Assembly: GCA_041671485.1 (NCBI GenBank)
Contig: JBAZBL010000001.1
Span: 23,037 to 87,036 of the forward strand
Reading direction: 5' to 3'
Source of the DNA: Minisyncoccota bacterium
Lineage (GTDB): Bacteria; Patescibacteriota; Minisyncoccia; Phycocordibacterales; PALSA-1337
DNA length: 64,000 nucleotides
The stretch's first letter is position 1. Each line of letters opens with the position of its first letter. A program made the translations under genes and the position numbers. Below are positions 11,420-62,509 of the stretch, piece after piece. Under the pieces are notes generated by a model, which saw nothing but the letters and a program-made list of their open reading frames with translations, was not told where the DNA came from and did no database searches.

Positions 11420-12382
11420 ATGATCAATCAACTTGTAAAATATATGCATCCATTTGAAAAAATACTAAGTGTTTCAAAAGAAAATATTGTTCTTGAAATA
11501 AAAGGCTTTTCTGATTTACCATGGGTAGATTTCTTACTTAATCCTCGCCGTTTAAGAGGTAGCGACTTCTTGATGCGATGGTCACAGGGGGTTTGGAGCG
11601 AAAATCGTCTTATTGAAGCGATAAATGAAAGCGGGAAATATTTTGCCGTTCCTTATGGTCCGAGCGGAACTGCCCCAACAGACGATGTACGGGCATTTGA
11701 ACTTTATTTTGAACGTTTAGAGAAAGCAGGTCTTGGTCATATAAAAAGACCAGATTTACTTGTATTCAAGAAAACAAACGAGAAAGCAGTGAGCAAGATT
11801 CTAAAAAATATTGGCGGAATACAAGAATTGCCTTTTACAGAAGAAAGTAAGCTTGATGGATTGCTTAAGATGGCAACGGTGGCAGTAGAATGTGAAAACA
11901 GTCTATGGAAATCAAAGAAAATGCCTGATTATGAAACTCTTCTTACACCACAGAAAAGATTAAACGGTCAGTTTGGATTGAAGAAAACAGCTGTTTTACC
12001 AACTGTAATCATTAAAGAAGAAGACCGAGAACCTCTTAATAAGTGGCAGGAAAATAATAAAGTACTGATTCATGTGTGGCATGTATTTTACGACCAAGCA
12101 TTTGGTATTCCTCTCAAAGAAGTGGAACGGTTGATCAGTAATGGTCTTATTCAGCCGACGATTCAAACATTTCAGGCACCCGGCGGAGCAACGACAAAGA
12201 AAGCCATATACAAAATCTATTACCGTTATGCCTATCCACTTGGTGACGCTATAGAAGAACCTACGCTTATTTCAGATTGTATTGAGGACAAGAATGGACA
12301 CATTTTGCCGTATGTTAAATTCCATGGAGGTAAGTTAAGACTTAACAATGAAGCTATTAAAGTCCTGGATTCAATTTTATGA
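11420..12382 (+). CDS. Putative type II restriction endonuclease (uncharacterised family), translationally coupled to downstream N6-adenine methyltransferase
   Basis: 320-aa ORF with no recognisable family. Its TGA stop overlaps the ATG of the methylase (ATGA). There is a possible PD-(D/E)xK-like 'RPDLLVFKK'. The call rests on genomic context. Confidence 0.4.
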   Translation: MINQLVKYMHPFEKILSVSKENIVLEIKGFSDLPWVDFLLNPRRLRGSDFLMRWSQGVWSENRLIEAINESGKYFAVPYGPSGTAPTDDVRAFELYFERLEKAGLGHIKRPDLLVFKKTNEKAVSKILKNIGGIQELPFTEESKLDGLLKMATVAVECENSLWKSKKMPDYETLLTPQKRLNGQFGLKKTAVLPTVIIKEEDREPLNKWQENNKVLIHVWHVFYDQAFGIPLKEVERLISNGLIQPTIQTFQAPGGATTKKAIYKIYYRYAYPLGDAIEEPTLISDCIEDKNGHILPYVKFHGGKLRLNNEAIKVLDSIL

Positions 12383-13890
12383 AAAGAATTATTCATCAAA
12401 AATTACCATCTCAACACAATGAGAGAGAAAGACTTAGAGATAAGGGACAATTTTGGACTCCGAGCTGGGTTGCTGATGCAATGGTTGCTTATGTGGCCAA
12501 AAATGCCGATCTTGTCTTCGATCCCGGAGTTGGTAAGGGTGTTTTTTATAGCTCGCTCAAAAAGATTAATCCGAAAATTAAATTCTACGGTACGGATATT
12601 GACCCAAATATTATTACTGATGCAAAAGCTGAAGGTATTTTTGATGATAATGCTCATCTCGAGATAAGAGATTTTATCCTCAATACTCCAAAGAAACTAT
12701 TCCGAGGTATTGTCGCAAATCCACCTTATATACGCCATCATCGTCTGTCACAAGAATATAAAGAAAAATTTAAAGCAATAAGTATACGGTCAATGAATGA
12801 CACACTCGATGGTCGCGCTGGTTTGCATATTTATTTCCTTATTCAAGCTCTAAACTTACTCGATAAAGGTGGTAGACTTGCTTTCATTATGCCAGCAGAT
12901 ACATGTGAAGGCATATTTTCAAAAAAGCTTTGGGATTGGATTTCAAAAGATTTCGCCATTGATGGTGTAATAACTTTTGACCATAAAGCTACACCTTTCC
13001 CTGGTGTAGATACTAATGCAGTTATCTTTTTAATCCGCAAAGACAGTCCAATAGAAAAAATAAAGTGGATTAAATGTTTGGAGCCAGAAACTACTCAATT
13101 ATTGAGTCTTATAAACGATGATTTCAAAGACGATAAGTTTTCTGATCTAGTTATCTATGATAGAGATTTAGAAGAAGCAATCTCGACAGGCTTGTCAAGG
13201 GCACCACAGGATAGAAAATTTGAATTCACTTTGGTCGATTTTGCAAAAGTAATGCGTGGTATCGCTACAGGTGCTAACGAATTCTTTTTTCTCACAAAGA
13301 AAAAGGTGAAGGAACTTAAGATTCCCGATAAATTCTTTCTTACAGCAGTTGGTCGGACACGCGATGCTGAGGGGTCTTATATTACAAAAGAAACTCTAGA
13401 AAAATTGGAAAGAAAAGGGAGGCCTACGCTTCTGTTTTTTCCTAATGGGACTGATTGGAAAAATATGCCTGATTCAGTTAAAAATTATATTATAGAGGGT
13501 CAGAAAATGGGATTGTCTAATCGCGCGTTGATTTCAACAAGACAACCTTGGTATAAAATGGAAGTTAGAGAAAAACCAGTATTTTTATTTGCTTATCTTG
13601 GTAGAAGAAATGCGCGGTTTATAAAAAATGAAGCAGGGATTATTCCACTCACTAGTTTCCTTTGTGTATATCCCCATTCAGATAATAAGGAATATATTGA
13701 TAAACTATGGGGAGTTTTACAACATCCAGATACAATCTCAAATTTGCAACTAGTTGGAAAATCTTATGGTTCTGGAGCAATTAAAGTTGAGCCTCGGTCA
13801 TTAGAGAGATTACCTATAAGTTCTAAAATTATTAAGGAATTTGGTCTAAATCCTATTAAGTTGGGATTATCTTTGTTTACACAAACATAG
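12379..13890 (+). CDS. N6-adenine DNA methyltransferase, gamma-class (Eco57I/TaqI-like), type II R-M
   Basis: Motif X 'GQFWTPSWVADAM', motif I 'FDPGVGKGVF', motif IV 'NPPYI' (NPPY), and a C-terminal target-recognition region. Confidence 0.85.
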   Translation: MKRIIHQKLPSQHNERERLRDKGQFWTPSWVADAMVAYVAKNADLVFDPGVGKGVFYSSLKKINPKIKFYGTDIDPNIITDAKAEGIFDDNAHLEIRDFILNTPKKLFRGIVANPPYIRHHRLSQEYKEKFKAISIRSMNDTLDGRAGLHIYFLIQALNLLDKGGRLAFIMPADTCEGIFSKKLWDWISKDFAIDGVITFDHKATPFPGVDTNAVIFLIRKDSPIEKIKWIKCLEPETTQLLSLINDDFKDDKFSDLVIYDRDLEEAISTGLSRAPQDRKFEFTLVDFAKVMRGIATGANEFFFLTKKKVKELKIPDKFFLTAVGRTRDAEGSYITKETLEKLERKGRPTLLFFPNGTDWKNMPDSVKNYIIEGQKMGLSNRALISTRQPWYKMEVREKPVFLFAYLGRRNARFIKNEAGIIPLTSFLCVYPHSDNKEYIDKLWGVLQHPDTISNLQLVGKSYGSGAIKVEPRSLERLPISSKIIKEFGLNPIKLGLSLFTQT

Positions 13891-19196: not shown

Positions 19197-22100
19197 ATGA
19201 TACACATGAAAAAGAAGACATACGGAGGTCAGACCTCCGGAGACAAATCAAAAGAATATAGTCCCTCTTTGATTGAAAATAAATGGCAAAGAAAATGGAA
19301 ATCTTCCAAGCTTTTCAAGACAAAAGAAGATACAAAGAAAGATAAATATTATATTCTAGACATGTTCCCATATCCTTCTGGTGAAGGACTTCATGTCGGG
19401 CATCCCAAAGGCTATATAGCGACCGATATAGTATCACGATACAGGAGAATGAGTGGGTACTCGGTTCTGCACCCTATGGGTTTCGATGCTTTCGGACTTC
19501 CTGCAGAGAATTATGCTATCCAGATGAAGACGAACCCAGCTATTGCAGTGTCTCAGAATGTCAAAAGATTCAAGAAGCAACTAGAAATTCTTGGCTTTGA
19601 CTATGATTGGTCTCGAGAAGTGAATACTACAGATCCAAAATACTATAAATGGACGCAATGGATCTTTCTACAACTTTTGAATAAGGGTCTAGCTTATGAA
19701 TCATATGAGCCGATAAACTGGTGTCCTTCTTGCAAAACTGGTTTGGCAAATGAAGATGTCGATGATGGTAGGTGCGAGAGGTGTGGTACTCCTGTAGAGA
19801 AGAAGCCGATGAGACAATGGGTCTTGAAGATCACTGATTATGCAGGAAGGTTGCTTGAGGATTTGGATGTAAAGAATAATGATGATAAACCCTTACTCGA
19901 CTGGCCGGAATCGATCAAAGAGGCTCAAAGGAATTGGATAGGGAGGAGTGAGGGAGCGGAGATAAAATTTCAAATTTCAAATTTCAAAGGTCAAAAATTA
20001 GAAAAGAACATAAAAGTCTTCACCACCCGCCCTGACACCATATTCGGCGTGACTTATTTGGTATTGGCACCAGAGCATAGATTGGTCAAAGAACTTTTGC
20101 CATTGGTTGAAAACAAAAAGGAAGTTGAGGAATATGTTGGTCGTGCCAAGAATGAGACCGAAATAGAGCGCACTGATGCCAAGAAAGAGAAGACCGGCGT
20201 TGAGATGAAGGGTATCAAGGTGATCAACCCCGCAAATAGAGAAGAGATACCTGTTTGGATAGCAGATTATGTTCTTGCCGACTATGGTACAGGCGCCGTC
20301 ATGGCTGTACCCTCACACGATGAGAGAGATTGGGATTTTGCGAAGAAGTTCGACTTACCGATAAAGCAGGTCATTGCACCTTACTTCACAGACAATCCTG
20401 GAAGTAAAGATGCTGTTAGAGATAATAAGAAAACAGTAAAAAGAAAGACTGCATATGCTCTTGTCTTTGACAAAAAAAATGATAAATTTTTATGCTTGAA
20501 TTGGGAAAAATTTGGTTGGCACTCTGGGATCATTGGTGGAGTTGATGATGGTGAAAGTTTCAAAGATGCAGCTTTACGAGAAATAAAAGAAGAAACTGGT
20601 TATAAAAATTTAAATTTGATCAAGAAATTGGGAGGTGAGCAACACAATCATTTCTTTGCTACTCATAAAGATGAAAACCGATATGCAATTGGCCATGGCA
20701 TGCTTTTTGAACTTGTGAATGATGAAAAAGAATTGGTTCTCGAAGAACATAGTTTAAACCATAAACCTGTGTGGATTGATATGGATAAAATGGAAGACTG
20801 GCTCAATTTGTCAGCTTTTAAATATATGTGGAAAGCTTACAAATCTAATTCGGATTGTTTTACTGGATATGGTAGGTTGTTAAATTCTGAGAAATTTGAT
20901 GGGACAGAAAGTAAAGATGTGATGAAAGAGATTACAGATTTTGTCGGTGGTCAGTGGGTCACAAAGTATAAACTCCGAGACTGGGTATTTTCTAGACAAC
21001 GGTATTGGGGCGAGCCGATACCTGTAATACATTGCACAAATTGTTTTGCAAAAGAGAATAAAACAAACGCAATTATTTTGCATGGCTGTCCTTCGAATGT
21101 TGAAAGAGCGATGGATCCTAAAAGACAAACATATGATAAACATTGGATACCATGGACAAAGAAACAATTAGAAATAGCAGGTATTGAGACACTAGTGCCA
21201 TTGATGCCAGAACCATGGCATATGTCATATGAAAAATGGAAGATAGAATTTGATAAATTACCGATAACTGAAAATAGTATTCTAATAGGACATAGTTGTG
21301 GATCTGCTTTTCTGGTTAGATGGTTGGGAGAGACAAAGAAAAAAGTGAGGATGCTTGTCTTGGTTGCACCTTGGAAAATAAATAGTAATAATGATGAATT
21401 TAGAAATAAATTCTATACATACACTATTGACAATGAAATTAAAGACAAAATAAAAAATATCTTTATCTTTACATCAGATGATGAGGAGGATAATGGAAAG
21501 AAAAGTGTCAATATCTTCAGAGAATCTTTGAATGCAAAAGTAATTGAATTAAAAAAACATGGTCATTATATTTACGGTGATATGAAAACAGAAGAATTCC
21601 CTGAATTAATAAATTTGATAAGTTCGTTTTCTTCCAAAGTAGTACCAGTTCCCGAGAAAGACCTACCAATAAAACTACCCAAAGTAAAATCCTATGAACC
21701 CACAGGAACAGGCGAATCGCCACTCGCTAATATAGACAAATGGGTCAATGTAAAGTGTCCAAAGTGCAAAGGTAAAGCCAAAAGAGAGACAAATACAATG
21801 CCACAATGGGCTGGCTCGTCTTGGTATTATTTGCGATATGAAGATCCAAAGAATAAAAAAGCATTCGTTGACACAAAGAAAGACAAATACTGGTCACCAG
21901 TTGACCTCTATGTAGGCGGAGCAGAACATGCCACGCGCCACCTCATATACGCTCGATTCTGGCACAAATTCTTGTACGATATAGGCATAGTCTCAACCAT
22001 CGAACCATTCATCAAACTTCAGAACGTAGGACTCATAATAGGTGAAGATGGAAGGAAGATGTCAAAAAGATTTGGTAATGTTGTCAATCCTGATGAAATT

Positions 22101-22802
22101 GTCGAAATATATGGAGCTGATACACTCCGAATATATGAAATGTTCATGGGTCCATTTGATCAACAGATCGCTTGGAATACGAACAGTATGGTTGGTTCTA
22201 GGAGATTTATCGAAAAAGTTTGGAGACTAAATAATAATCTAAAGACGAATAGAGGATCGACCGTCGCAGGGGCGACAAATGGCGACTTGGCGAAGCCAAC
22301 GAAGGCATTTAGTCGCCCCGAGGAGGGAGATCCGTATTTAATTTTGATTGATAAAACCCTTCACAAAGCAATTAAAAAGGTAACCGAAGACATTCAAGGA
22401 CTAAAATTCAATACTGCATTGAGTACACTTATGATTGCTGTGAATGAAATGGAGTCTTCGGGATCGGTGACTAGAGAACAATTCGAAATATTACTGAAAC
22501 TGCTAGCACCATTTGCTCCTTATGTAACAGAAGAATTGTGGTCTGGACTTGGTAATAAGAAATCGATACATATATCAGAATGGCCAGAGTATGATCCGAG
22601 CCTAATAGTTGATAATGAAGTAAAAATCATTGTTCAAGTGAATGGCAAGGTTCGTGGTTCATTTGACGCTGATCCAGATATAAATGAAGAAGAAATGAAG
22701 AAGAAAGCGCTCAATCTACCTGAAGTGAAAAAGTGGATTGATGGCAATCAAATCAAGAAAGTGATCGTCGTTAAAAGTAAGTTGGTGAGTTTGGTGGTTT
22801 AA
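19197..22802 (+). CDS. leuS: Leucyl-tRNA synthetase with two embedded extra domains (NUDIX hydrolase; alpha/beta serine hydrolase) and one in-frame palindromic element
   Basis: 1201 aa, versus ~800-880 typical. HIGH motif 'PYPSGEGLHVGHPKGY'. KMSKS motif 'KMSKRFGNVV'. 'YKLRDWVFSRQRYWGEPIP'. C-terminal anticodon-binding domain. The NUDIX box is 'GGVDDGESFKDAALREIKEETG'. A GxSxG hydrolase nucleophile 'IGHSCGSAF' lies within the insertion. Confidence 0.9.
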   Translation: MIHMKKKTYGGQTSGDKSKEYSPSLIENKWQRKWKSSKLFKTKEDTKKDKYYILDMFPYPSGEGLHVGHPKGYIATDIVSRYRRMSGYSVLHPMGFDAFGLPAENYAIQMKTNPAIAVSQNVKRFKKQLEILGFDYDWSREVNTTDPKYYKWTQWIFLQLLNKGLAYESYEPINWCPSCKTGLANEDVDDGRCERCGTPVEKKPMRQWVLKITDYAGRLLEDLDVKNNDDKPLLDWPESIKEAQRNWIGRSEGAEIKFQISNFKGQKLEKNIKVFTTRPDTIFGVTYLVLAPEHRLVKELLPLVENKKEVEEYVGRAKNETEIERTDAKKEKTGVEMKGIKVINPANREEIPVWIADYVLADYGTGAVMAVPSHDERDWDFAKKFDLPIKQVIAPYFTDNPGSKDAVRDNKKTVKRKTAYALVFDKKNDKFLCLNWEKFGWHSGIIGGVDDGESFKDAALREIKEETGYKNLNLIKKLGGEQHNHFFATHKDENRYAIGHGMLFELVNDEKELVLEEHSLNHKPVWIDMDKMEDWLNLSAFKYMWKAYKSNSDCFTGYGRLLNSEKFDGTESKDVMKEITDFVGGQWVTKYKLRDWVFSRQRYWGEPIPVIHCTNCFAKENKTNAIILHGCPSNVERAMDPKRQTYDKHWIPWTKKQLEIAGIETLVPLMPEPWHMSYEKWKIEFDKLPITENSILIGHSCGSAFLVRWLGETKKKVRMLVLVAPWKINSNNDEFRNKFYTYTIDNEIKDKIKNIFIFTSDDEEDNGKKSVNIFRESLNAKVIELKKHGHYIYGDMKTEEFPELINLISSFSSKVVPVPEKDLPIKLPKVKSYEPTGTGESPLANIDKWVNVKCPKCKGKAKRETNTMPQWAGSSWYYLRYEDPKNKKAFVDTKKDKYWSPVDLYVGGAEHATRHLIYARFWHKFLYDIGIVSTIEPFIKLQNVGLIIGEDGRKMSKRFGNVVNPDEIVEIYGADTLRIYEMFMGPFDQQIAWNTNSMVGSRRFIEKVWRLNNNLKTNRGSTVAGATNGDLAKPTKAFSRPEEGDPYLILIDKTLHKAIKKVTEDIQGLKFNTALSTLMIAVNEMESSGSVTREQFEILLKLLAPFAPYVTEELWSGLGNKKSIHISEWPEYDPSLIVDNEVKIIVQVNGKVRGSFDADPDINEEEMKKKALNLPEVKKWIDGNQIKKVIVVKSKLVSLVV
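19223..19239. repeat. Palindrome CGGAGGTC-A-GACCTCCG (family also at 49341 and 51121)
   Basis: Perfect 8-bp arms. It lies at codons 9-15 of the leuS ORF. Confidence 0.8.
19965..19985 (+). repeat. Heptanucleotide tandem repeat (AAATTTC)x3 inside leuS
   Basis: AAATTTCAAATTTCAAATTTC. The same heptamer, x4, occurs at the 5' end of the M23 peptidase gene. Confidence 0.85.
22254..22333. mobile_element. GC-rich palindromic miniature element (family A) inserted in-frame in leuS
   Basis: GGATC...CGTCGCAGGGGCGACAAATGGCGACTTGGCGAAGCCAACGAAGGCATTTAGTCGCCCCGAGGAGGG...GATCC. About 93% identical to the infB copy (44490-44576) and the topA copy (40424-40530, reverse complement). It encodes 'STVAGATNGDLAKPTKAFSRPEEGD' within an otherwise AT-rich gene. 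Confidence 0.75.
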
Positions 22803-26361: not shown

Positions 26362-26727
26362 TTAGATTCCCAGAACCTGAACCAAATCGTTGAAAAGAAA
26401 TGGCTTATGGATTGTATACTGGGCCCCTACCGAGATTGCGGCCGCAACATCCGCTTTGCCAAGGTCTCCAGACATGAGACATATCTTGGCATCGTCCGGC
26501 AGAAGCTCCTTCGCTTCTCTGATCAGCCTGATACCATTCCCATCTGGATTGATGTTGAGGTCGGTAATGAGGACATCGAACTCTGGATCTCCAGACAAGT
26601 ATTCCAGAGTTTCACTTTCAGATCCAAAATCAACGACATGATGACCCAGTCCTCGAAAACGTATTGCCAACGTGAGACGAAGAAGCTCAGTGTCATCAAC
26701 GATTAGTATCTTTAGTAACTTATTCAT
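26362..26727 (-). CDS. Single-domain response regulator (CheY-like receiver)
   Basis: 121 aa. 'ILIVDDTELLR' and the phospho-acceptor region 'DVLITDLNI'. Confidence 0.85.
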   Translation of the reverse strand: MNKLLKILIVDDTELLRLTLAIRFRGLGHHVVDFGSESETLEYLSGDPEFDVLITDLNINPDGNGIRLIREAKELLPDDAKICLMSGDLGKADVAAAISVGAQYTIHKPFLFNDLVQVLGI

Positions 26728-26797
26728 CGTATTTTTCTCTTTCTTTATCCGAATTTATTTCTTTATCTGTTCTAAAAAGTATGATATCATCATTAAT

Positions 26798-28003
26798 ATG
26801 ATTCGTCAAGACAGAAAAAAGGTATTCATCGGCCTATCTGGAGGAGTAGATAGTGCTGTTTCTGCGACACTATTGAAAAGAGCTGGCTATGATATAACTG
26901 GTGTCTTCATCAAAGTCTGGCAACCAGATTGGATAGAGTGCTCTTGGCGAGAAGATAGGCTCGATGCAATGAGGGTTGCAGCACATCTAGATATACCCTT
27001 CATTACACTAGACCTAGAAAAAGAGTATAAACATGAAGTTATAGATTATATGATAGAGGAATACAAAAGAGGCAAAACACCAAATCCAGATGTAATGTGC
27101 AATCGAACAATCAAATTTGGTGCATTTTATGATTGGGCAATGCAAAATGGTGGAGACTTCGTAGCAACGGGGCACTATGCAAGAATCAGATGCCAGAACA
27201 TTGTCGGCGCTGACTTGTACCTGCGCGAAGCCTTTTCGCCTCACCACTACTCGCGGTTCGGCGAGAAAGGTTCGCTTCGGCACGCGTCAGCACCTGACAA
27301 TGTTAAATATTCTCTATCTATGGGAAAAGACTCAAATAAAGACCAATCGTATTTTCTCTGGACATTGAAGCAGGAACAATTGCCACATATTTTATTTCCT
27401 GTTGGCAATATGACAAAGCCGGAGGTTAGGAAGCTGGCAAAAAGGTTTGATTTGCCAAATGCTGACAAAAAAGACAGTCAAGGACTATGCTTTATTGGCA
27501 AGGTTGATGTAAAAGATTTTCTTTCACATTACATTGAGAGAGAAAGTGGTAATGTTCTAAATATGAATGGTGAAATCATAGGTAAACACCCAGGATCATT
27601 ATTTTTCACTATTGGAGAGAGACATGGTTTTAGTTTAGACAAGAAGACACCAAATGATGAGCCAATGTATGTCGTAGACAAAGACATAGAGCAAAATACG
27701 ATTACTGTCGGGGTGCGATTGGCTCGCGAAGTAAATGTGTCCGACTTGATGAACACTTCATCAGAGCAAATTTCAATTGAACAAGTGAATTGGATTCGAG
27801 GGAGTGTTCCAGAAAATTTCAAGGATAAAATATTCACTGCAAGGACTAGATATAGACAAAGACTCGAAAAAATAAGAATCATTTCTGTAACATTTACTGA
27901 AACAATAATAGAATTTATGGAAAAACAAGAGAATTTAGCTAGTGGACAATCACTTGTTATATATGATGGGGATGAATGTTTTGGTGGGGGAGTGATATCT
28001 TGA
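26798..28003 (+). CDS. mnmA: tRNA-specific 2-thiouridylase MnmA (start at internal ATG; contains ~30-aa in-frame GC-rich insertion)
   Basis: PP-loop 'VFIGLSGGVDSAVSA', 'GHYARI' and 'KDQSYFL'. The ORF track start at 26672 encodes an implausible low-complexity leader. Confidence 0.88.
   Translation: MIRQDRKKVFIGLSGGVDSAVSATLLKRAGYDITGVFIKVWQPDWIECSWREDRLDAMRVAAHLDIPFITLDLEKEYKHEVIDYMIEEYKRGKTPNPDVMCNRTIKFGAFYDWAMQNGGDFVATGHYARIRCQNIVGADLYLREAFSPHHYSRFGEKGSLRHASAPDNVKYSLSMGKDSNKDQSYFLWTLKQEQLPHILFPVGNMTKPEVRKLAKRFDLPNADKKDSQGLCFIGKVDVKDFLSHYIERESGNVLNMNGEIIGKHPGSLFFTIGERHGFSLDKKTPNDEPMYVVDKDIEQNTITVGVRLAREVNVSDLMNTSSEQISIEQVNWIRGSVPENFKDKIFTARTRYRQRLEKIRIISVTFTETIIEFMEKQENLASGQSLVIYDGDECFGGGVIS
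27204..27296. repeat. GC-rich palindromic in-frame insertion within mnmA (~90 bp)
   Basis: GGCGCTGAC...GCGCGAAGCCTTTTCGCC...GGCGAGAAAGGTTCGCTTCGGC...GCGTCAGCACC, with approximately reverse-complementary halves. It encodes 'VGADLYLREAFSPHHYSRFGEKGSLRHASAP' between the conserved GHYAR and KDQSYFL motifs. It is far GC-richer than its flanks. Confidence 0.7.
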
Positions 28004-39259: not shown

Positions 39260-41710
39260 TCAAGGATTAACTTCCTTTATTTTCTTTTTGAATCCACGTT
39301 GTTTCTTTTCTTGTGCCAATAACTCTAATGCACGTTCGAATGTAATATTGTAAATATCATCTGGTGCTTTGACTGAACGGAAGTCGCCATCAAGGACGAC
39401 GTATGGACCAAAACGTCCGATCGAAGCTGTAATTTCTTTATTTGTCTTTGGATCTATACCCAATACTTTTGGCAAACTCAAATATTTGAGAGCATCTGCA
39501 ACCGTAACTTTCATAGGATCAGCGTTCTTTGGAATCGAGGCCATCTTTGGTTTAAAATTAGCAACAATTTTATTGGCATCTTGCTCTTCACTTTTCACTT
39601 TTAACTTTTCCCCGCGCGCCAAGCTTCGCCCGGCGAAGCGGGCGGGACTTTTAATCTTTATTTTCCCCTTAATCCTCTCCCCCAACTGCACATATGGTCC
39701 AAATCTTCCATTCAAAACAAATATTGGCAATCCTGTTGTCGGATCTATACCTATAGGTTCATCTTTCTTGAATTCCATACCGTCTATAGTGAGTGCTCCA
39801 TCACAATCGGGATATTTTGAACATGATATAAATTTGCCGTTCTTTCCTAGTTTTATTTCCATAGAAGGACTGCCACATTTCGGACATTTGAACTTTGAAT
39901 CTGCTAAACCAAGATTGGTCAATTTGTCTATCTTTTCTTTGGACTTCACTTCTTTGTGAAATGGTCCATAAAAGTCAGTAAGAGTCTTCAAATATGTACG
40001 TTCACCATTTGCTATTTCATCGAGTTCATTCTCCATCTCTGCTGTAAAGTCATCACTTATATAAGTAGGGAAGTTCTCCTCTAGGAATGTAGAAACAACT
40101 TCACCTATATCGGTCGGCTTTAGAGAGCGACCCTCCTTTTCTACATAACCTCTATCTTCTATAGTCTTTGAAATAGAAGCGTATGTAGAAGGACGCCCTA
40201 TGCCTCTCTTTTCCAATTCTTTGATCAAACCTGCTTCTGTATATCGAGACGGTGGTTGTGTTTGCTTTTCTTCGGAATCAATATTCAAAAGCTTCAATGA
40301 TTCTCCTTTATCACATTTTGGTAAATTAACTTCATCGCCACTTGAATCTGGATCAGCCTTGAGCCAGCCGTCGAATAAAATACGAGAACCATTTGCTTCG
40401 AAGTTTGGGATGCCACCGGCCGCTTCTCCCTCCTCGGCGCGACTAAATGTCTTCGTTTGCTTCGCAAAGTCGACATTTGTCGCCGCCTCGACGGTCGAAG
40501 CGGCCTCCGACGCCGTTCGCGGAGGGAGAATGTTCTCCACCGATTCCAAAATGTTTGCAATAATCTTTGTTTTCGCCAATCTTGCATCTGCCATTTGAGA
40601 AGCAACCGCTCTTTGCCAAATAAGTTTATAAAGACGCTTTTGTTCATCCGTATGTCCAGCAACAGATTTATTGAAATGACTTGGTCTTATAGCTTCATGT
40701 GCTTCTTGAGCATTTTTGCTCTTTGTAGCATATGTTCTTATATGTAGGTAATTTTTGCCATATTCTTTTTCTACCACTTGGCTTATCTGTGCCAATGCTT
40801 GCTCTCCTAGATTCGTAGAATCTGTCCTCATATATGTGATATATCCAGATTCGTACAATTTCTGGGCAATACTCATTGTCCTAGAAGGAGAAAAACCGAG
40901 TCTTGAACTAGCGGTCTGTTGCAAAGTAGATGTTATAAATGGTGCGCGTGGAGATCTCTTTTGTTCTGATTCTTCTATGTCTATGACTTTCCAATCATTC
41001 TTTTTTGCAGTGTCAATTATGTATTCAGCTTCTTCTTTCTTCTTTGGCTCTACAGAACAAGATAGATGCAATTTACCATCTTTTGTAGTCAACCAATCTC
41101 CAGCAATAGTCCAATATGTCTCTGGCTTGAATGCACGGATCTCTCTTTCTCTCTCCATTATTATACGTAGAGCAGGGGACTGGACTCGGCCAGCAGACAA
41201 GCCATAACGAACTTTTTTCCAGATAAGTCCGGAGAGATCATATCCTACTATCCTGTCTAGAACACGACGAGCTTCTTGTGCTTCTTTTAGATTTTCATCT
41301 ATAGGTCTAGGACTTTTGAGAGCTTCCTCTACAGCTTCTTTTGTAACTTCATGATATGTGATTCTCTTTATCTTCGATGCAGGGATCTTGTCATAACCAT
41401 CAGACAAGCCCTTCTTGGTCAGAAGCTCCTTCAAATGCCAAGCTATGGCTTCACCTTCACGGTCTGGGTCGGTTGCAAGAAGTATTTCATCGGCTTTCTC
41501 TGCTTCAATCCTTATTTCATCTATGATAGTTTGCTTCTTTGCTACGACTTCATAGTGGGGTATAAAACCGCCTTCTATATCTACTGCTTTTTTATTGGAC
41601 TTTGGCAGATCACGCACATGACCAACAGAAGCACGTACGATAAAATCTTTTCCCAAATATTTGGAAATAGTTTTTGCTTTTGAGGGGGACTCGACGATCA
41701 GTAGTTTCAT
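39260..41710 (-). CDS. topA: DNA topoisomerase I (with two in-frame GC-rich palindromic insertions)
   Basis: Toprim N-terminus 'LLIVESPSKAKTISKYLG', the catalytic Tyr region, and C-terminal zinc ribbons 'CPKCGS...CSKYPDC'. Confidence 0.92.
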   Translation of the reverse strand: MKLLIVESPSKAKTISKYLGKDFIVRASVGHVRDLPKSNKKAVDIEGGFIPHYEVVAKKQTIIDEIRIEAEKADEILLATDPDREGEAIAWHLKELLTKKGLSDGYDKIPASKIKRITYHEVTKEAVEEALKSPRPIDENLKEAQEARRVLDRIVGYDLSGLIWKKVRYGLSAGRVQSPALRIIMEREREIRAFKPETYWTIAGDWLTTKDGKLHLSCSVEPKKKEEAEYIIDTAKKNDWKVIDIEESEQKRSPRAPFITSTLQQTASSRLGFSPSRTMSIAQKLYESGYITYMRTDSTNLGEQALAQISQVVEKEYGKNYLHIRTYATKSKNAQEAHEAIRPSHFNKSVAGHTDEQKRLYKLIWQRAVASQMADARLAKTKIIANILESVENILPPRTASEAASTVEAATNVDFAKQTKTFSRAEEGEAAGGIPNFEANGSRILFDGWLKADPDSSGDEVNLPKCDKGESLKLLNIDSEEKQTQPPSRYTEAGLIKELEKRGIGRPSTYASISKTIEDRGYVEKEGRSLKPTDIGEVVSTFLEENFPTYISDDFTAEMENELDEIANGERTYLKTLTDFYGPFHKEVKSKEKIDKLTNLGLADSKFKCPKCGSPSMEIKLGKNGKFISCSKYPDCDGALTIDGMEFKKDEPIGIDPTTGLPIFVLNGRFGPYVQLGERIKGKIKIKSPARFAGRSLARGEKLKVKSEEQDANKIVANFKPKMASIPKNADPMKVTVADALKYLSLPKVLGIDPKTNKEITASIGRFGPYVVLDGDFRSVKAPDDIYNITFERALELLAQEKKQRGFKKKIKEVNP
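39596..39653. repeat. 42-bp GC-rich palindromic element (CTTTTCCCCGCGCGCCAAGCTTCGCCCGGCGAAGCGGGCGGG) flanked by 8-bp direct repeat ACTTTTAA, in-frame in topA
   Basis: The direct repeats sit at 39596-39603 and 39646-39653. The element contains the perfect palindrome GCTTCGCC-C-GGCGAAGC. It encodes 'SPARFAGRSLARGE' between KIK and KVK codons. Confidence 0.7.
40424..40530. mobile_element. GC-rich palindromic miniature element (family A, reverse orientation) with 10-bp perfect TIR TTCTCCCTCC/GGAGGGAGAA, in-frame in topA
   Basis: The reverse complement of the inner ~65 nt (CCGTCGAGGCGGCGACAAATGTCGACTTTGCGAAGCAAACGAAGACATTTAGTCGCGCCGAGGAGGG) matches the leuS and infB copies at ~85-90%. It encodes 'STVEAATNVDFAKQTKTFSRAEEGE', paralleling the leuS peptide. 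Confidence 0.75.
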
Positions 41711-43835: not shown

Positions 43836-45437
43836 TTAACCTACCTTTTCCACCGTCTTCACCGCCTCCACTCTATCTCCAACAGCAATTTCAACTTTTG
43901 CTTCTACCATAACACCAAATTCATGTCCCTCTCTAACTTCACCTGTTCTCATCTTCTTTTCTTGAAGTTCTCTTATCTTACCTCGTCCAATCTCTGCATC
44001 TCTTCTAATTATCTTTACTTCATTTCCAGTCAAAATAGTACCCGTTACAACCTTTCCACCAATAACTTGTTTATCTCTTTCTTTTGAAAATATCGCAAGA
44101 ATCTTGGCGAGGCCAATTGATTCCTCTATATATTCTTTTGGCACTTTTGCCAGTAATGAATCACGAACGAATTGAACCAATTCATATATAACTTTGAATG
44201 TTTTGACATTTACAGAATTGTGCTCGATCACAGCAACAACCTTCTTGTCTGGCATTGAATTGAAACCAATTATTGTAATATTTGGATCACCCATGGCAAT
44301 CTTTACATCATTTTCATTTATATCACCAATACCTTCGGAAACAACCTTTATTTGCACCTTATCATGTTTTATCTTTGCCAATTCATGTTTGACACCATCG
44401 AGACTGCCTATAACATCAGCTTTGATGATAATGGGGAATGAAATAATTTCTGTCTCTGTATTCTCTTCAGAATCAATAGCTGACTTGTTGTCGTCGCCCC
44501 CGTCGCAGGCGGCGACAAATGGCGACTTCGCGAAGCGAACGAAGGCATTTCGTCGCGCCGAGGAGGGGGCGACGACTGAAATCTTATTTACCTCCACCAA
44601 CTTCTCTGCCTCTTTCTTTGTATCAACTATAGTAAATGTACTTCCACAAACAGGTATTTCATTCCAGCCACTAACAATTACAGGCATTGAAGCTATCGCT
44701 CTATCAATCTTTTGTCCTTTGAAATCTTCTATAAAACGAATTGGTGTGTAAGATACACCTGCAACAGCAAATGTACCTATTCCAAGTGTTCCATTTTTTA
44801 TCAATAATGTGGCTTGTATTCCTTTTTGTGTATCCATTTCAGATTCTATGACTATACCTTCTGCAGATTTATCTGGATCTGTTTTGAGATCGGCCAATTC
44901 GGAAATCAAAATAACCATATCCAAAAGTTCTGAAATGCCTTCTCCATTCAAGGAAGAAATTGATACATTTGGAATATCACCACCCCAACCTTCAAGATAT
45001 ACCTCATTCTCGCCCAAACTTTGTTTTGTCTTATTTATATCTGCATTTGGTTTGTCTATCTTATTTATAGCAACAACATAGGGGATTTTTGCATTTTTAA
45101 TTTCGTTCAAAGCTTCTATCGTTTGTGGCTTTACACCATCTTCAGCAGAAACAACCAATATTGCTACATCAGCAGCTTTGGCACCTCTCTCACGGATAGT
45201 ACAAAAGGCTTCATGACCTGGTGTATCCAAAAATGTGATTTCATGTTTATTCCCATCACTACTTATATGCTCTACTTCATATGCGCCAACGTGCTGGGTT
45301 ATACCACCAGCTTCGCCTGCAACTATATTTGATTTCCTGATGAAATCGAGCAGAGTAGATTTGCCATGATCTATATGACCCATAACAACGACTATAGGAG
45401 GCCGCTTTATGCAGTTTTTTGTATTCTTATTTGGCAT
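43836..45437 (-). CDS. infB: Translation initiation factor IF-2 (short form; contains in-frame palindromic element)
   Basis: G-domain 'VVVMGHIDHGKSTLLDFIR', 'DTPGHEAF' and 'NKIDK'. The C-terminal beta-barrel domains are present. Confidence 0.92.
   Translation of the reverse strand: MPNKNTKNCIKRPPIVVVMGHIDHGKSTLLDFIRKSNIVAGEAGGITQHVGAYEVEHISSDGNKHEITFLDTPGHEAFCTIRERGAKAADVAILVVSAEDGVKPQTIEALNEIKNAKIPYVVAINKIDKPNADINKTKQSLGENEVYLEGWGGDIPNVSISSLNGEGISELLDMVILISELADLKTDPDKSAEGIVIESEMDTQKGIQATLLIKNGTLGIGTFAVAGVSYTPIRFIEDFKGQKIDRAIASMPVIVSGWNEIPVCGSTFTIVDTKKEAEKLVEVNKISVVAPSSARRNAFVRFAKSPFVAACDGGDDNKSAIDSEENTETEIISFPIIIKADVIGSLDGVKHELAKIKHDKVQIKVVSEGIGDINENDVKIAMGDPNITIIGFNSMPDKKVVAVIEHNSVNVKTFKVIYELVQFVRDSLLAKVPKEYIEESIGLAKILAIFSKERDKQVIGGKVVTGTILTGNEVKIIRRDAEIGRGKIRELQEKKMRTGEVREGHEFGVMVEAKVEIAVGDRVEAVKTVEKVG
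44490..44576. mobile_element. GC-rich palindromic miniature element (family A) with 12-14-bp perfect TIR GTCGTCGCCCCC/GGGGGCGACGAC, 87 bp (29 codons), in-frame in infB
   Basis: Inner sequence CGTCGCAGGCGGCGACAAATGGCGACTTCGCGAAGCGAACGAAGGCATTTCGTCGCGCCGAGGAGGG. It is in the opposite coding orientation to the leuS and topA copies. It encodes 'SSARRNAFVRFAKSPFVAACDGGDD' in IF-2. Confidence 0.8.
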
Positions 45438-54298: not shown

Positions 54299-54766
54299 AT
54301 GATTGAACTTACAACAGGTGTAATCTTCCTAATGTCATCCCTATACGGCTCTCAACATGCAGATATGCAAGTTGCAAATATTGCAAATGCACAGATGCAG
54401 GACGAAGAAAAAGTAGAGAAGGTGGCAATTGTGAAGATTGTTGATCCAAAAGACATCGAAGCATATATCCGCAAAGAATTTTCTGATAAGCCAATCCTAA
54501 TTGAAATTGCATGGTGCGAATCACGCTTCAGGCAATTCAATGAAAATGGAACAGTAATTCGTGGTGAAAAAAATAGCAAAGATGTCGGTGTGATGCAGAT
54601 CAATGAAAGATTCCATGCCGAAGATGCAGTCGAACTAGGATATAACATATATTCAACACAGGGTAATACAGCATTTGGTAAATATCTTTATGAGAAGTAT
54701 GGAACAGATCCATGGAGCGCGTCCAAGAAGTGTTGGAGTCAGTCGGGTGATCTCGCGAAGAAGTAA
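54299..54766 (+). CDS. Small lysozyme-like / lytic transglycosylase (SLT-like) domain protein
   Basis: N-terminal hydrophobic segment. Catalytic-Glu context 'IAWCESRFRQ' and 'GVMQIN' fit the family-1 lytic transglycosylase pattern. Confidence 0.6.
   Translation: MIELTTGVIFLMSSLYGSQHADMQVANIANAQMQDEEKVEKVAIVKIVDPKDIEAYIRKEFSDKPILIEIAWCESRFRQFNENGTVIRGEKNSKDVGVMQINERFHAEDAVELGYNIYSTQGNTAFGKYLYEKYGTDPWSASKKCWSQSGDLAKK
54639..54766 (+). repeat. 128-bp direct repeat, copy 1 (3' end of SLT-like gene)
   Basis: 126/128 identical to 57332-57459. Similarity continues ~45 bp further downstream into terminator-like hairpins (GGCTCC..GGAGTCTTTTGTT). Confidence 0.9.
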
Positions 54767-57331: not shown

Positions 57332-57459
57332 GATATAACATATATTCAACACAGGGTAATACAGCATTTGGTAAATATCTTTATGAGAAGTATGGAACAG
57401 ATCCATGGAGCGCGTCCAAGAAGTGTTGGAATCAGGCGGGTGATCTCGCGAAGAAGTAA
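57332..57459 (+). repeat. 128-bp direct repeat, copy 2 (orphan 3' fragment of the SLT-like gene; preceded by in-frame stop)
   Basis: It matches 54639-54766 with 2 mismatches. It has no upstream coding continuation. Confidence 0.9.
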
Positions 57460-61608: not shown

Positions 61609-61843
61609 ATGGGTATTATAGCAAGAAAGTATATGAATTTCTTTATGCTAGAGTTATCAACAACAAGTAAATTTGACTATATATATCCAATTTGTTAGTC
61701 TTTAATTAGAAGTATGCAATAATAACTTACGAGGTGCTCCGATGTTCCCTCAGAATATCTGGGGCTTGAGTTGGAGAACACCACCTTGTGAGACGCTACT
61801 TCTAACAAAGAACCCCTTTCCACTTCGGTCAGGGATTTTTTGT

Positions 61844-62509
61844 TTATATTATAATCGATTTTCCATTGAACAATTCCCTCCCCTTTCCAATAATATTTTT
61901 CTTCAGAATTTTGAAACATTCCTCACCTAGTTTTCCTTTTTCAAGATATCGTGCCAAAGCTCCTGCAATCCAGTCGGCAATTTGAATATTCACTACCGCA
62001 GTTGAATCAACCATTTCAATTTGTAAAACTACACCCTTTGGCAAGGATGGTAACAGACGAGCTTTTAGGACTTCCTTGAATTCTGTCTCGGACATACCAC
62101 TCAATCTTCTACGGTCGCAGAAAACACGAAACTCTTTATCAGTTGTCGGTAAATATGATGTTAGTATTTCGCCGACTATATTTGTATATAAAAGTCCGCT
62201 CTGTAATTTATTTTTATGATGATACTCTGCTGGAATATTTCTATGAAGTAAATAGGCAAAATGTATTCGAACATCTAGTTTTGAAATCTCTCTCAAAGTC
62301 TTTAGGCGTAAGGCATCAGAAAATCCGGTACTTGCCCATTTAATCTCACTCAGATCACGCATCTTTCTAGGAAAATGGCCACGAAGCCATGCTCGAAATC
62401 CCTTTGCTGTTCGCCGAACATTGCCAACAGTAAATGAAGCAACAATAAAATAGTTTTTATTACTGTACTTGGAAAATTGTCCACTTTCATCAAGAAAAAT
62501 ATATGGCAT
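61844..62509 (-). CDS. DUF3800-family protein
   Basis: N-terminal 'YIFLDESG' and C-terminal 'IQIADWIAGAL' match the DUF3800 signature motifs. Family membership is recalled from memory. Confidence 0.6.
   Translation of the reverse strand: MPYIFLDESGQFSKYSNKNYFIVASFTVGNVRRTAKGFRAWLRGHFPRKMRDLSEIKWASTGFSDALRLKTLREISKLDVRIHFAYLLHRNIPAEYHHKNKLQSGLLYTNIVGEILTSYLPTTDKEFRVFCDRRRLSGMSETEFKEVLKARLLPSLPKGVVLQIEMVDSTAVVNIQIADWIAGALARYLEKGKLGEECFKILKKNIIGKGRELFNGKSIII

Follow-up and report, generated by a model that had tools for sequence, protein, structure and literature searches.

A GC-rich hairpin repeat in topA belongs to a family with in-frame copies in housekeeping genes of Patescibacteria

The DNA topoisomerase I gene (topA) of an uncultured, ultra-small Minisyncoccota bacterium (GTDB Patescibacteriota) contains a short, GC-rich palindromic segment within its coding sequence, which we refer to as a copy of family A. 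The gene lies on the reverse strand of the window, a 64,000-nucleotide stretch of contig JBAZBL010000001.1 (assembly GCA_041671485.1, positions 23,037 to 87,036) to which all positions below refer. Its 816-aa open-reading frame (ORF) encodes Pfam domains Toprim, Topoisom_bac, Zn_ribbon_Top1 and Toprim_C_rpt, the product matches the E. coli TopA structure 4rul (E = 1.4e-140), and an identical protein, named Candidatus Paceibacterota, is present in NCBI, JGI and ENA records. The window as a whole has a GC content of 37.6%, whilst that of 40350-40550 is 55-59%, and that of 40424-40530 is 58%. A sequence-only reading of the window had delimited an element at 40424-40530 by a 10-bp terminal inverted repeat. 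The repeat is exact, with TTCTCCCTCC occurring once per strand in the window, at 40424-40433 (+) and 40521-40530 (-); taken alone, such a repeat is weak evidence, and some 30 distinct 10-bp perfect inverted repeats with a spacing of no more than 120 nt are present in the window, where about six are expected by a rough estimate. The 107-nt segment folds at -57.4 kcal/mol (z = -5.7; none of 200 shuffled sequences folded as well) and encodes TopA residues ~394-431 (...EAASTVEAATNVDFAKQTKTFSRAEEGEAAGG...), the peptide around it reading ...ILPPRTASEAASTVEAATNVDFAKQTKTFSRAEEGEAAGGIPNFEANGSR.... The junction between host gene and element is base-for-base identical in the Logan assembly of a different run, SRR6484324, where the contig ends 37 nt into the element (window position 40454), the behaviour expected of a unitig reaching a repeat. 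This identical junction, together with the identical protein in the three databases, disfavours an assembly artefact.

The window contains exactly three copies of the family by both repeat search and nhmmer (E = 1e-25 to 3e-23), in the leucyl-tRNA synthetase gene leuS, in topA and in the translation initiation factor IF2 gene infB, and nhmmer detected nothing else below E = 5 in the entire 64 kb. The earlier proposal that the topA segment is the third member of a family is therefore borne out at the nucleotide level: the three copies share 89-93% identity over 61-74 nt, and the topA segment matches the others over 74 nt at 89% and over 61 nt at 92% complementary identity. The relationship between the encoded peptides was also read correctly, as the leuS copy (STVAGATNGDLAKPTKAFSRPEEGD) and the topA copy (STVEAATNVDFAKQTKTFSRAEEGE) share element frame and orientation, whilst in infB the other strand of the element is the one that is read (PSSARRNAFVRFAKSPFVAACDG). 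In leuS, the copy falls in an unaligned gap between two blocks that align to Mycoplasma LeuS (3ziu); in infB, it sits in the linker after IF2 domain II, and in a second IF2 (locus L024), which shares 65% identity with it, this site again holds a family copy, oppositely oriented. The apical hairpins of the three copies differ in compensatory fashion (TTGGC-GAA-GCCAA in leuS, TTCGC-GAA-GCGAA in infB and TTTGC-GAA-GCAAA in topA), the third stem pair being G-C, C-G and T-A, respectively, and the fold z-scores of the copies range from -5.7 to -6.8. The LeuS protein itself (window 19197-22802, 1201 aa) has an unusual architecture, with a NUDIX domain (aa 416-532) and a Ser_hydrolase domain (aa 646-805) within the synthetase body.

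Alignment of 28 distinct copies (alignment A4) defines a family unit of ~75-112 nt, a GC-rich imperfect palindrome in which the conserved part is internal, a core of ~66-72 nt reading 5'-CGACCGTCG(C)AGGCGGCGACAARTG ... CAYTTNGTCGCGCCGAGGAGGGAG-3'. The core halves are separated by an apical module, of which at least five types occur; those in the window are short hairpins with a GAA loop, and those elsewhere are longer. A complementary outer stem (3-13 bp) immediately flanks the core, and its sequence varies by copy or subfamily. The limits of the topA unit consequently differ from those first drawn: an element is present where it was placed, yet the unit is that given in Table 1, so the original span missed 6 nt at one end and included 24 nt beyond the other. 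With a model of the 28 copies, nhmmer aligned 40421-40505 (envelope 40412-40510, E = 4e-25). The exact 10-bp repeat is likewise not the terminal inverted repeat of the family, as its first arm is the 3' motif of the core (GGAGGGAGAA in element orientation, 40433-40424) and its inverted partner (TTCTCCCTCC, 40530-40521) lies in a 24-nt module specific to this copy. That the topA copy is longer and carries an extra palindromic module was correctly noted: a 22-nt palindrome, CCTCCG-ACGCCGTTCG-CGGAGG with a 10-nt centre, occupies 40504-40525 and is absent from all other family loci that we fetched. The module lies upstream of the canonical unit in element orientation, is not covered by the family model and reads LPPR..., resembling the reverse-strand frame of the family (LPPRRDE...). 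It may represent what is left of a second copy in inverted orientation, or have arisen by template switching, and local generation by inverted target duplication or palindrome extension could also be its source.

Table 1 Family A copies in the window and the parts of the topA copy, with the outer stem of the copy in locus L024.
Feature	Window position	Strand	Basis
topA (DNA topoisomerase I, 816 aa)	39260..41710	-	ORF and translation, Pfam, structure match
topA copy: family-type unit, 89 nt (outer stem, core, apical hairpin)	40418..40506	-	family alignment A4
topA copy: outer stem 3' arm, GAAGCGGCC in element orientation, GGCCGCTTC on + strand	40418..40426	-	complementary to 40498-40506
topA copy: conserved core, CGACCGTCGAGG to GAGGAGGGAG, with tandem G.A/A.G oppositions and invariant T.G	40426..40497	-	(near-)invariant columns of A4
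topA copy: apical hairpin TTTGC-GAA-GCAAA	40456..40468	-	third stem pair covaries across the three window copies
topA copy: outer stem 5' arm, GGCCGCTTC in element orientation	40498..40506	-	pairs with 3' arm
topA copy: copy-specific extra module, 24 nt, with inverted 3' motif (TTCTCCCTCC) and most of a small palindrome	40507..40530	-	exact 10-bp inverted repeat with 40424-40433
leuS copy: outer stem GGATC/GATCC	22254..22333	+	nhmmer, repeat search
infB copy: 12-bp outer stem GTCGTCGCCCCC/GGGGGCGACGAC	44490..44578	+ (gene on -)	nhmmer, repeat search
IF2 copy of locus L024: outer stem CCGCAAAATCCTC/GAGGATTTTGCGG

The family is not confined to this genome: 25 fetched loci, one of them a duplicate, yielded 27 distinct copies beyond those of the window, from Patescibacteria metagenome-assembled genomes (MAGs) and from metagenomes of groundwater and sediment. 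A scan for the apical hairpin pattern over one genome per GTDB species returned four loci, all in Patescibacteria or "Saccharibacteria" MAGs, and the pattern GGCGACAA-N(25-45)-GTCGCNCCGAGGAGGG, scanned against metagenome contigs from JGI/ENA, returned 21 loci, chiefly from the Hainich aquifer and other groundwater and sediment samples. Altogether nhmmer gave 31 matches, including one refetch of topA and one duplicated locus, leaving 29 distinct copies; one locus (L018) matched the pattern only and lies outside the family. Copies in unrelated genes and in different metagenomes share 89-96% nucleotide identity over ~70 nt, and several loci carry two copies within 3-6 kb. No copy was found in the viral contig collection, and the flanks of the source contig recovered short Logan contigs only, with no further family copies in them. 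At the protein level, a six-frame profile of the element peptide had no match at E <= 1 among 5.8 billion proteins, probably because a 25-aa segment keeps too few bits under the entropy weighting of HMMER, and a concatenated single-sequence query yielded only three further host proteins at E <= 10. [quoted passage not shown] By these searches, family A is a previously undescribed repeat family.

Covariation across the family was counted on a hand-drawn structure over A4, using controls in which the 3' partners were slid by 1-3 columns. In the drawn structure, 84.1% of cells were paired compared with 35-52% in the slid controls, 23 pairs showed changes on both sides, and none of 500 shuffles scored as high for covariation. 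One example of compensatory change is AAATG/CATTT vs. AAGTG/CACTT. Next to the core, the four closest pairs of the outer stem (columns 11-14/99-102) form in 26-28 of the 28 copies, with two to five pair types each. The core itself maintains five conserved purine-purine oppositions, G.A at column pairs 15-98, 19-94 and 22-91 and A.G at 16-97 and 24-90 (25-28 of 28 copies each), together with one invariant T.G, and it is owing to these that the fold of the element strand is better by 5-9 kcal/mol than that of its complement. Three copies (infB, L002 and L020) replace the tandem G.A/A.G with Watson-Crick CTCCC/GGGAG. The suggestion that GGAGGG-containing termini are general to the family therefore did not hold, as this motif (GGAGGGAG) belongs to the 3' end only and its 5' complement CTCCC is present in just 3 of 28 copies. 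At the 3' end, GAGGAGGGAG was present in three of the four copies found with the pattern that did not require the 3' motif. A test for strand-specific wobble gave no support for one selected RNA strand: excluding the invariant pair there were 15 G.T and 16 A.C cells, and with counts this even the variable pairs resemble those of a DNA palindrome. The idea that the core forms a kink-turn was dropped, as the bulged strand lacks the required G.A after a 3-nt bulge, and tandem sheared G.A pairs would appear to fit the core better. We also observed the same apical hairpin (CGACTTTGCGAAGCAAACGAAG) within a different outer palindrome in a 'Saccharibacteria' MAG (L005, 5920-5990), so apical modules seem common to otherwise different hairpin families.

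Approximately two thirds of the copies lie in frame in housekeeping genes, with hosts identified by Pfam on the copy-bearing ORFs, three database proteins and one TopA homologue. In addition to LeuS, the hosts comprise TopA (two sites in two genomes), IF2 (the same linker in two genomes), SecA (three loci and two sites, one gene carrying two copies in opposite orientations), GyrB, PNPase (pnp), MetRS (metG), PheS, GatB, SMC, Dus, a GT4 glycosyltransferase, a SAM methyltransferase, an M50-type protease and a glutamine amidotransferase (GATase). Every coding copy is part of a long, stop-free ORF with the downstream domains kept in frame, whilst around ten other copies occupy short spacers between ORFs or between tRNA genes, many of them directly after gene ends. 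The family DNA occurs in both orientations and in three or more reading frames. A single frame, encoding the acidic, Cys-free peptide STVEAATxVDFAKxTKTxxRAEEG, accounts for 15 of the 20 coding copies; the remainder are read as PSSARR...VAACDG (3/20), LPPRRDE...SRHLSPP (1/20) or mixed (1/20). The core is stop-free in four to six frames, so the preference is not a by-product of stop codons, and a three-fold frame bias is not producible by orientation bias alone. The bias is read most simply as selection on the peptide, which would imply translation, and would be unexpected if the element were removed before translation. The inserted peptide is hydrophilic, ~25-45 aa long and probably disordered.

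In TopA, residues 384-435 (52 residues) replace seven residues of the E. coli protein (416-422). We aligned the 120 best database TopA proteins (the query plus 119 homologues, 65-76% identical, 734 to 911 aa in length) and found that the stretch between "ANI/V" and "IP(D/N)FEA(N/T)GSR" ranges from 3 to >100 residues, the shortest Paceibacterota homologues having only 3-6 residues at this position. The sequence-only reading had proposed comparison with TopA orthologues, and the outcome favours an insertion: the query's peptide was found at this site in none of the 119 closest homologues. The site is an insertion hot spot in Paceibacterota TopA, located between two beta-strands. In an AlphaFold2 model (61 aligned sequences, mean predicted local distance difference test score (pLDDT) of 70), residues 393-431 score <50 without secondary structure and are flanked by the strands 376-387 and 437-446, in blocks scoring 81-94, so the insert is modelled as a disordered loop. 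One homologue (P0036) carries its family copy in a different linker.

Other repeat-like sequences were observed in the same protein and in other Paceibacterota proteins. A second short GC-rich palindrome (window 39583-39671, fold z = -1.6) lies in the C-terminal linker of topA (residues ~680-710), where residues 681-718 have a pLDDT <50, and it is this linker that carries the family copy in P0036. Short TVEAA strings occur exactly at the topA insertion site in two homologues, P0036 (...AVTTVEAAIPDF...) and P0055 (...AATVEAAPNN...), which have only "TTVEAA" or "ATVEAA" there; these strings may be decayed remnants of family A. Peptides of the form PAKAGIQ...LDSRLRGNDK or DPRFRGDD are present in the hot-spot loops of four TopA homologues (P0016, P0019, P0045 and P0049) and in SecA of locus L007 (aa ~110-150), and look like translations of a different widespread repeat family.

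The closest known parallel in behaviour is provided by the Rickettsia palindromic elements (RPEs; Ogata et al. 2000, Science 290:347; Ogata et al. 2002), which integrate in frame at unusually high frequency as summarised in a 2024 review of MITEs, where they are treated as the extreme case and other prokaryotes are only speculated on (PMC10969869). Both RPEs and family A are short palindromic repeats without their own coding capacity that interrupt no frame in the numerous unrelated housekeeping genes where they sit and are found in non-coding DNA too, being read mostly in one frame that yields a conserved peptide, at fold-compatible positions and in the reduced genome of a host-dependent bacterium. 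Family A is indeed a multi-copy palindrome that leaves the frame intact in many genes, at variable sites compatible with the fold. The two differ in lineage (Alphaproteobacteria vs. Patescibacteria/CPR), in length (~100-150 nt vs. ~75-112 nt) and in composition and build: family A is strongly GC-rich in an AT-rich genome, is modular, with a G.A-rich middle, exchangeable apical modules and subfamily outer stems, and is common to divergent genomes at ~90% identity. We make no claim of membership of the Rickettsia families proper, the likeness being one of behaviour.

Other classes of small element show partial resemblance. Bacterial MITEs (Coxiella QMITE1, PMC5896051; ERIC, BOX, Correia) are similarly small, non-autonomous, hairpin-forming and multi-copy with occasional in-frame fusions, but are defined by conserved terminal inverted repeats matching an insertion sequence (IS) and by target-site duplications, whereas family A has variable termini (GGATC, GTCGTCGCCCCC and GGCCGCTTC within one genome), no visible duplication and no known parent IS. 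Repetitive extragenic palindromic (REP)/BIME sequences of the RAYT system and IS200/IS605 derivatives share with family A a conserved, presumably recognised imperfect hairpin, an apparent lack of target-site duplication and intergenic copies just downstream of genes; however, REPs are extragenic, 20-40 nt long and have a conserved 5' GTAG, and IS200/IS605 derivatives insert 3' of a fixed tetranucleotide, neither of which is seen in family A. Finally, mitochondrial GC clusters, 'byp' elements and the coding palindromes of Nematomorpha (PMC6649704) are GC-rich hairpins that spread in AT-rich reduced genomes, coding genes included, yet these are organellar, byps are skipped by the ribosome and the nematomorph palindromes are long and perfect with both arms coding, whilst family A appears to be translated straight through. 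We regard family A as coding palindromic repeats from a phylum new to this kind of element, set apart by their modular hairpin, and not as a new category of element.

We consider it likely that the topA segment is one copy of a dispersed, GC-rich hairpin repeat, non-coding by origin, which is translated with its host gene in the manner of the RPEs. Its membership of the family, a hairpin with compensatory changes, insertion relative to orthologues, an intact frame, a preferred frame and placement in variable loops are all observed. A functional structured signal in RNA or DNA, such as an RNase III or other processing site, a translational pause, a REP-like mRNA stabiliser or terminator, or a site for a nucleoid or repair protein, with coding copies exploiting tolerant loops, would explain the strong compensatory variation around a near-invariant core with its purine-purine oppositions and invariant T.G, the better fold of the element strand, the many copies in short spacers directly after gene ends, and a core ~90% identical where the IF2 and TopA proteins are only 65-76% identical. 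We regard such a signal as unlikely to be the explanation, as no Rfam family matches the element even when E may reach 10, copies are found in either orientation with respect to transcription, the near-equal wobble counts on the two strands indicate a DNA palindrome and not one selected RNA strand, and a regulatory role at non-homologous positions in a dozen unrelated essential ORFs is hard to picture. It is, moreover, compatible with mobility and hence not exclusive of a mobile, translated repeat.

Far less probable, in our view, is an intervening sequence that leaves host proteins unaltered, the hairpin being cut out of the mRNA or undergoing ribosomal bypass, as happens in phage T4 gene 60 and the Magnusiomyces mitochondrial 'byp' elements. 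Mitochondrial byps and GC clusters are GC-rich hairpins within AT-rich genomes and are found in essential genes, and family A resembles them in all of these respects; the perfect stem would also draw both flanks together. CPR bacteria have rRNA genes that are full of intervening sequences; the study describing CPR ribosomes treats rRNA insertions and protein extensions only (PMC9297842). Neither excision nor bypass, however, needs coding copies to be free of stops or the downstream frame to be kept, nor would removal before translation demand the placement seen throughout, in variable loops or linkers, and one frame of six, that giving the most loop-compatible peptide, is used by 15 of 20 copies. 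It is hardly credible that the similarity between copies is a by-product of local evolution, through hypervariable loops and palindromes growing by template switching, or of mis-assembly: the TopA site is indeed hypervariable with unrelated inserts in many homologues, 10-bp inverted repeats are common in the window and outer stems vary by copy as local palindrome extension predicts, but none of this yields 89-96% identity over ~70 nt in unrelated genes of different metagenomes, a 12-bp outer stem common to two copies in one SecA and the TopA of another genome, or identical junctions in independent assemblies, and the family census contradicts it.

Several points nonetheless weigh against a translated, mobile repeat as the explanation for the topA segment. 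Translation is inferred from frame statistics, and the conserved G.A-rich core with its invariant T.G could likewise belong to a functional RNA or to a site bound by protein. The metagenome pattern required the 3' motif, so the diversity of the family is under-sampled, and the available TopA relatives include none above 76% identity and no empty-site allele. Hairpin units defined by pairing in the window are 80 or 89 nt long and are not multiples of three, hence the true inserted DNA must differ by at least 1 nt from the unit defined by pairing. No direct repeats were seen to flank the seven copies from one metagenome, the two SecA copies or the three window copies (boundaries ±1-2 nt), no conserved terminal inverted repeat was seen across copies, and no transposase, including Y1/HUH types, was found among the scanned or annotated window ORFs (>=150 aa; the window being less than a tenth of the genome).

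If family A is a translated, RPE-like repeat, then copies would land or survive in intergenic spacers or in permissive surface loops and linkers, those in coding sequence would keep the frame and be transcribed and translated with the host gene, and the element would be selfish or neutral and simply tolerated, as proposed for the RPEs. It may move through a single-stranded hairpin intermediate recognised by a trans-acting enzyme of a REP/RAYT-like or IS200/IS605-like kind; we favour this route only weakly and tentatively, as a conserved non-canonical middle flanked by anything that pairs fits a hairpin recognised by protein. No tetranucleotide is shared at the hairpin foot (left flanks of copies from the same metagenome: AAAT, AAAT, TGAC, AGTC, CAGT and AAAC), and a CGTYAGCC extension occurs in one subfamily only and not in the window copies. 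The outer stem travels with the element and is not made at each insertion, as both SecA copies of locus L013 share their 12-bp outer stem with the TopA copy of P0036. Local generation of the outer stem at insertion, by inverted target duplication or palindrome extension, was dropped as a general rule on account of this shared stem.

A broader and rather doubtful possibility is that family A is the tip of a CPR-wide system of hairpin elements, in which the G.A core serves as the recognition module of undescribed mobilisation machinery, the elements spread horizontally and the loops of essential proteins are remodelled as a result. The core is ~90% identical between genomes whose IF2 and TopA proteins share 65-76% identity. 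Were this the case, such elements would be a major source of lineage-specific insertions in CPR proteins. In-frame palindromic repeats in essential genes have so far been treated as a near-unique oddity of Rickettsia, and finding that an unrelated element behaves in this way in Patescibacteria suggests that selfish hairpin DNA has repeatedly gained entry to protein loops where genomes are reduced and host-dependent. The Patescibacteria are a huge radiation, uncultured and otherwise poor in genes. Some of the variation in length among CPR housekeeping proteins could be explained by family A, which also gives a testable way into the question of how CPR-specific protein insertions arose, whilst the modular hairpin with its conserved non-canonical core provides a handle for finding the mobilising enzyme. 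More practically, its copies could serve as strain-typing markers, and annotators and structure predictors should be cautious of loops that are derived from repeats.

The window contains further structured or repeated DNA, including a 109-nt near-perfect GC-rich hairpin at 27196-27304, in frame in mnmA (ORF 26672-28003, Pfam tRNA_Me_trans), with an RNA minimum free energy of -54.8 kcal/mol (z = -6.4). Its sequence is unrelated to family A and it thus represents a second coding hairpin family in the same genome. Two 128-nt direct repeats sharing 98% identity (54639-54766 and 57332-57459) bracket a 2.7 kb segment with an NYN-domain gene, adjoined by a Bro-N gene, and the whole is possibly a small element that has integrated. 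Two tRNA genes have their 3' ends repeated downstream, at 7739-7785/7874-7920 (135 nt) and 30984-31004/31168-31188 (184 nt), with GC-rich structured spacers, and att-like duplications of this kind hint at past integrations. Positions 11420-13890 hold an AccI-like endonuclease and an Eco57I-type methylase, which make up a type II restriction-modification pair, and a DUF3800-V RNA (Rfam RF02964, 82.6 bits) at 61708-61803 lies directly upstream of a DUF3800 gene (61844-62509).

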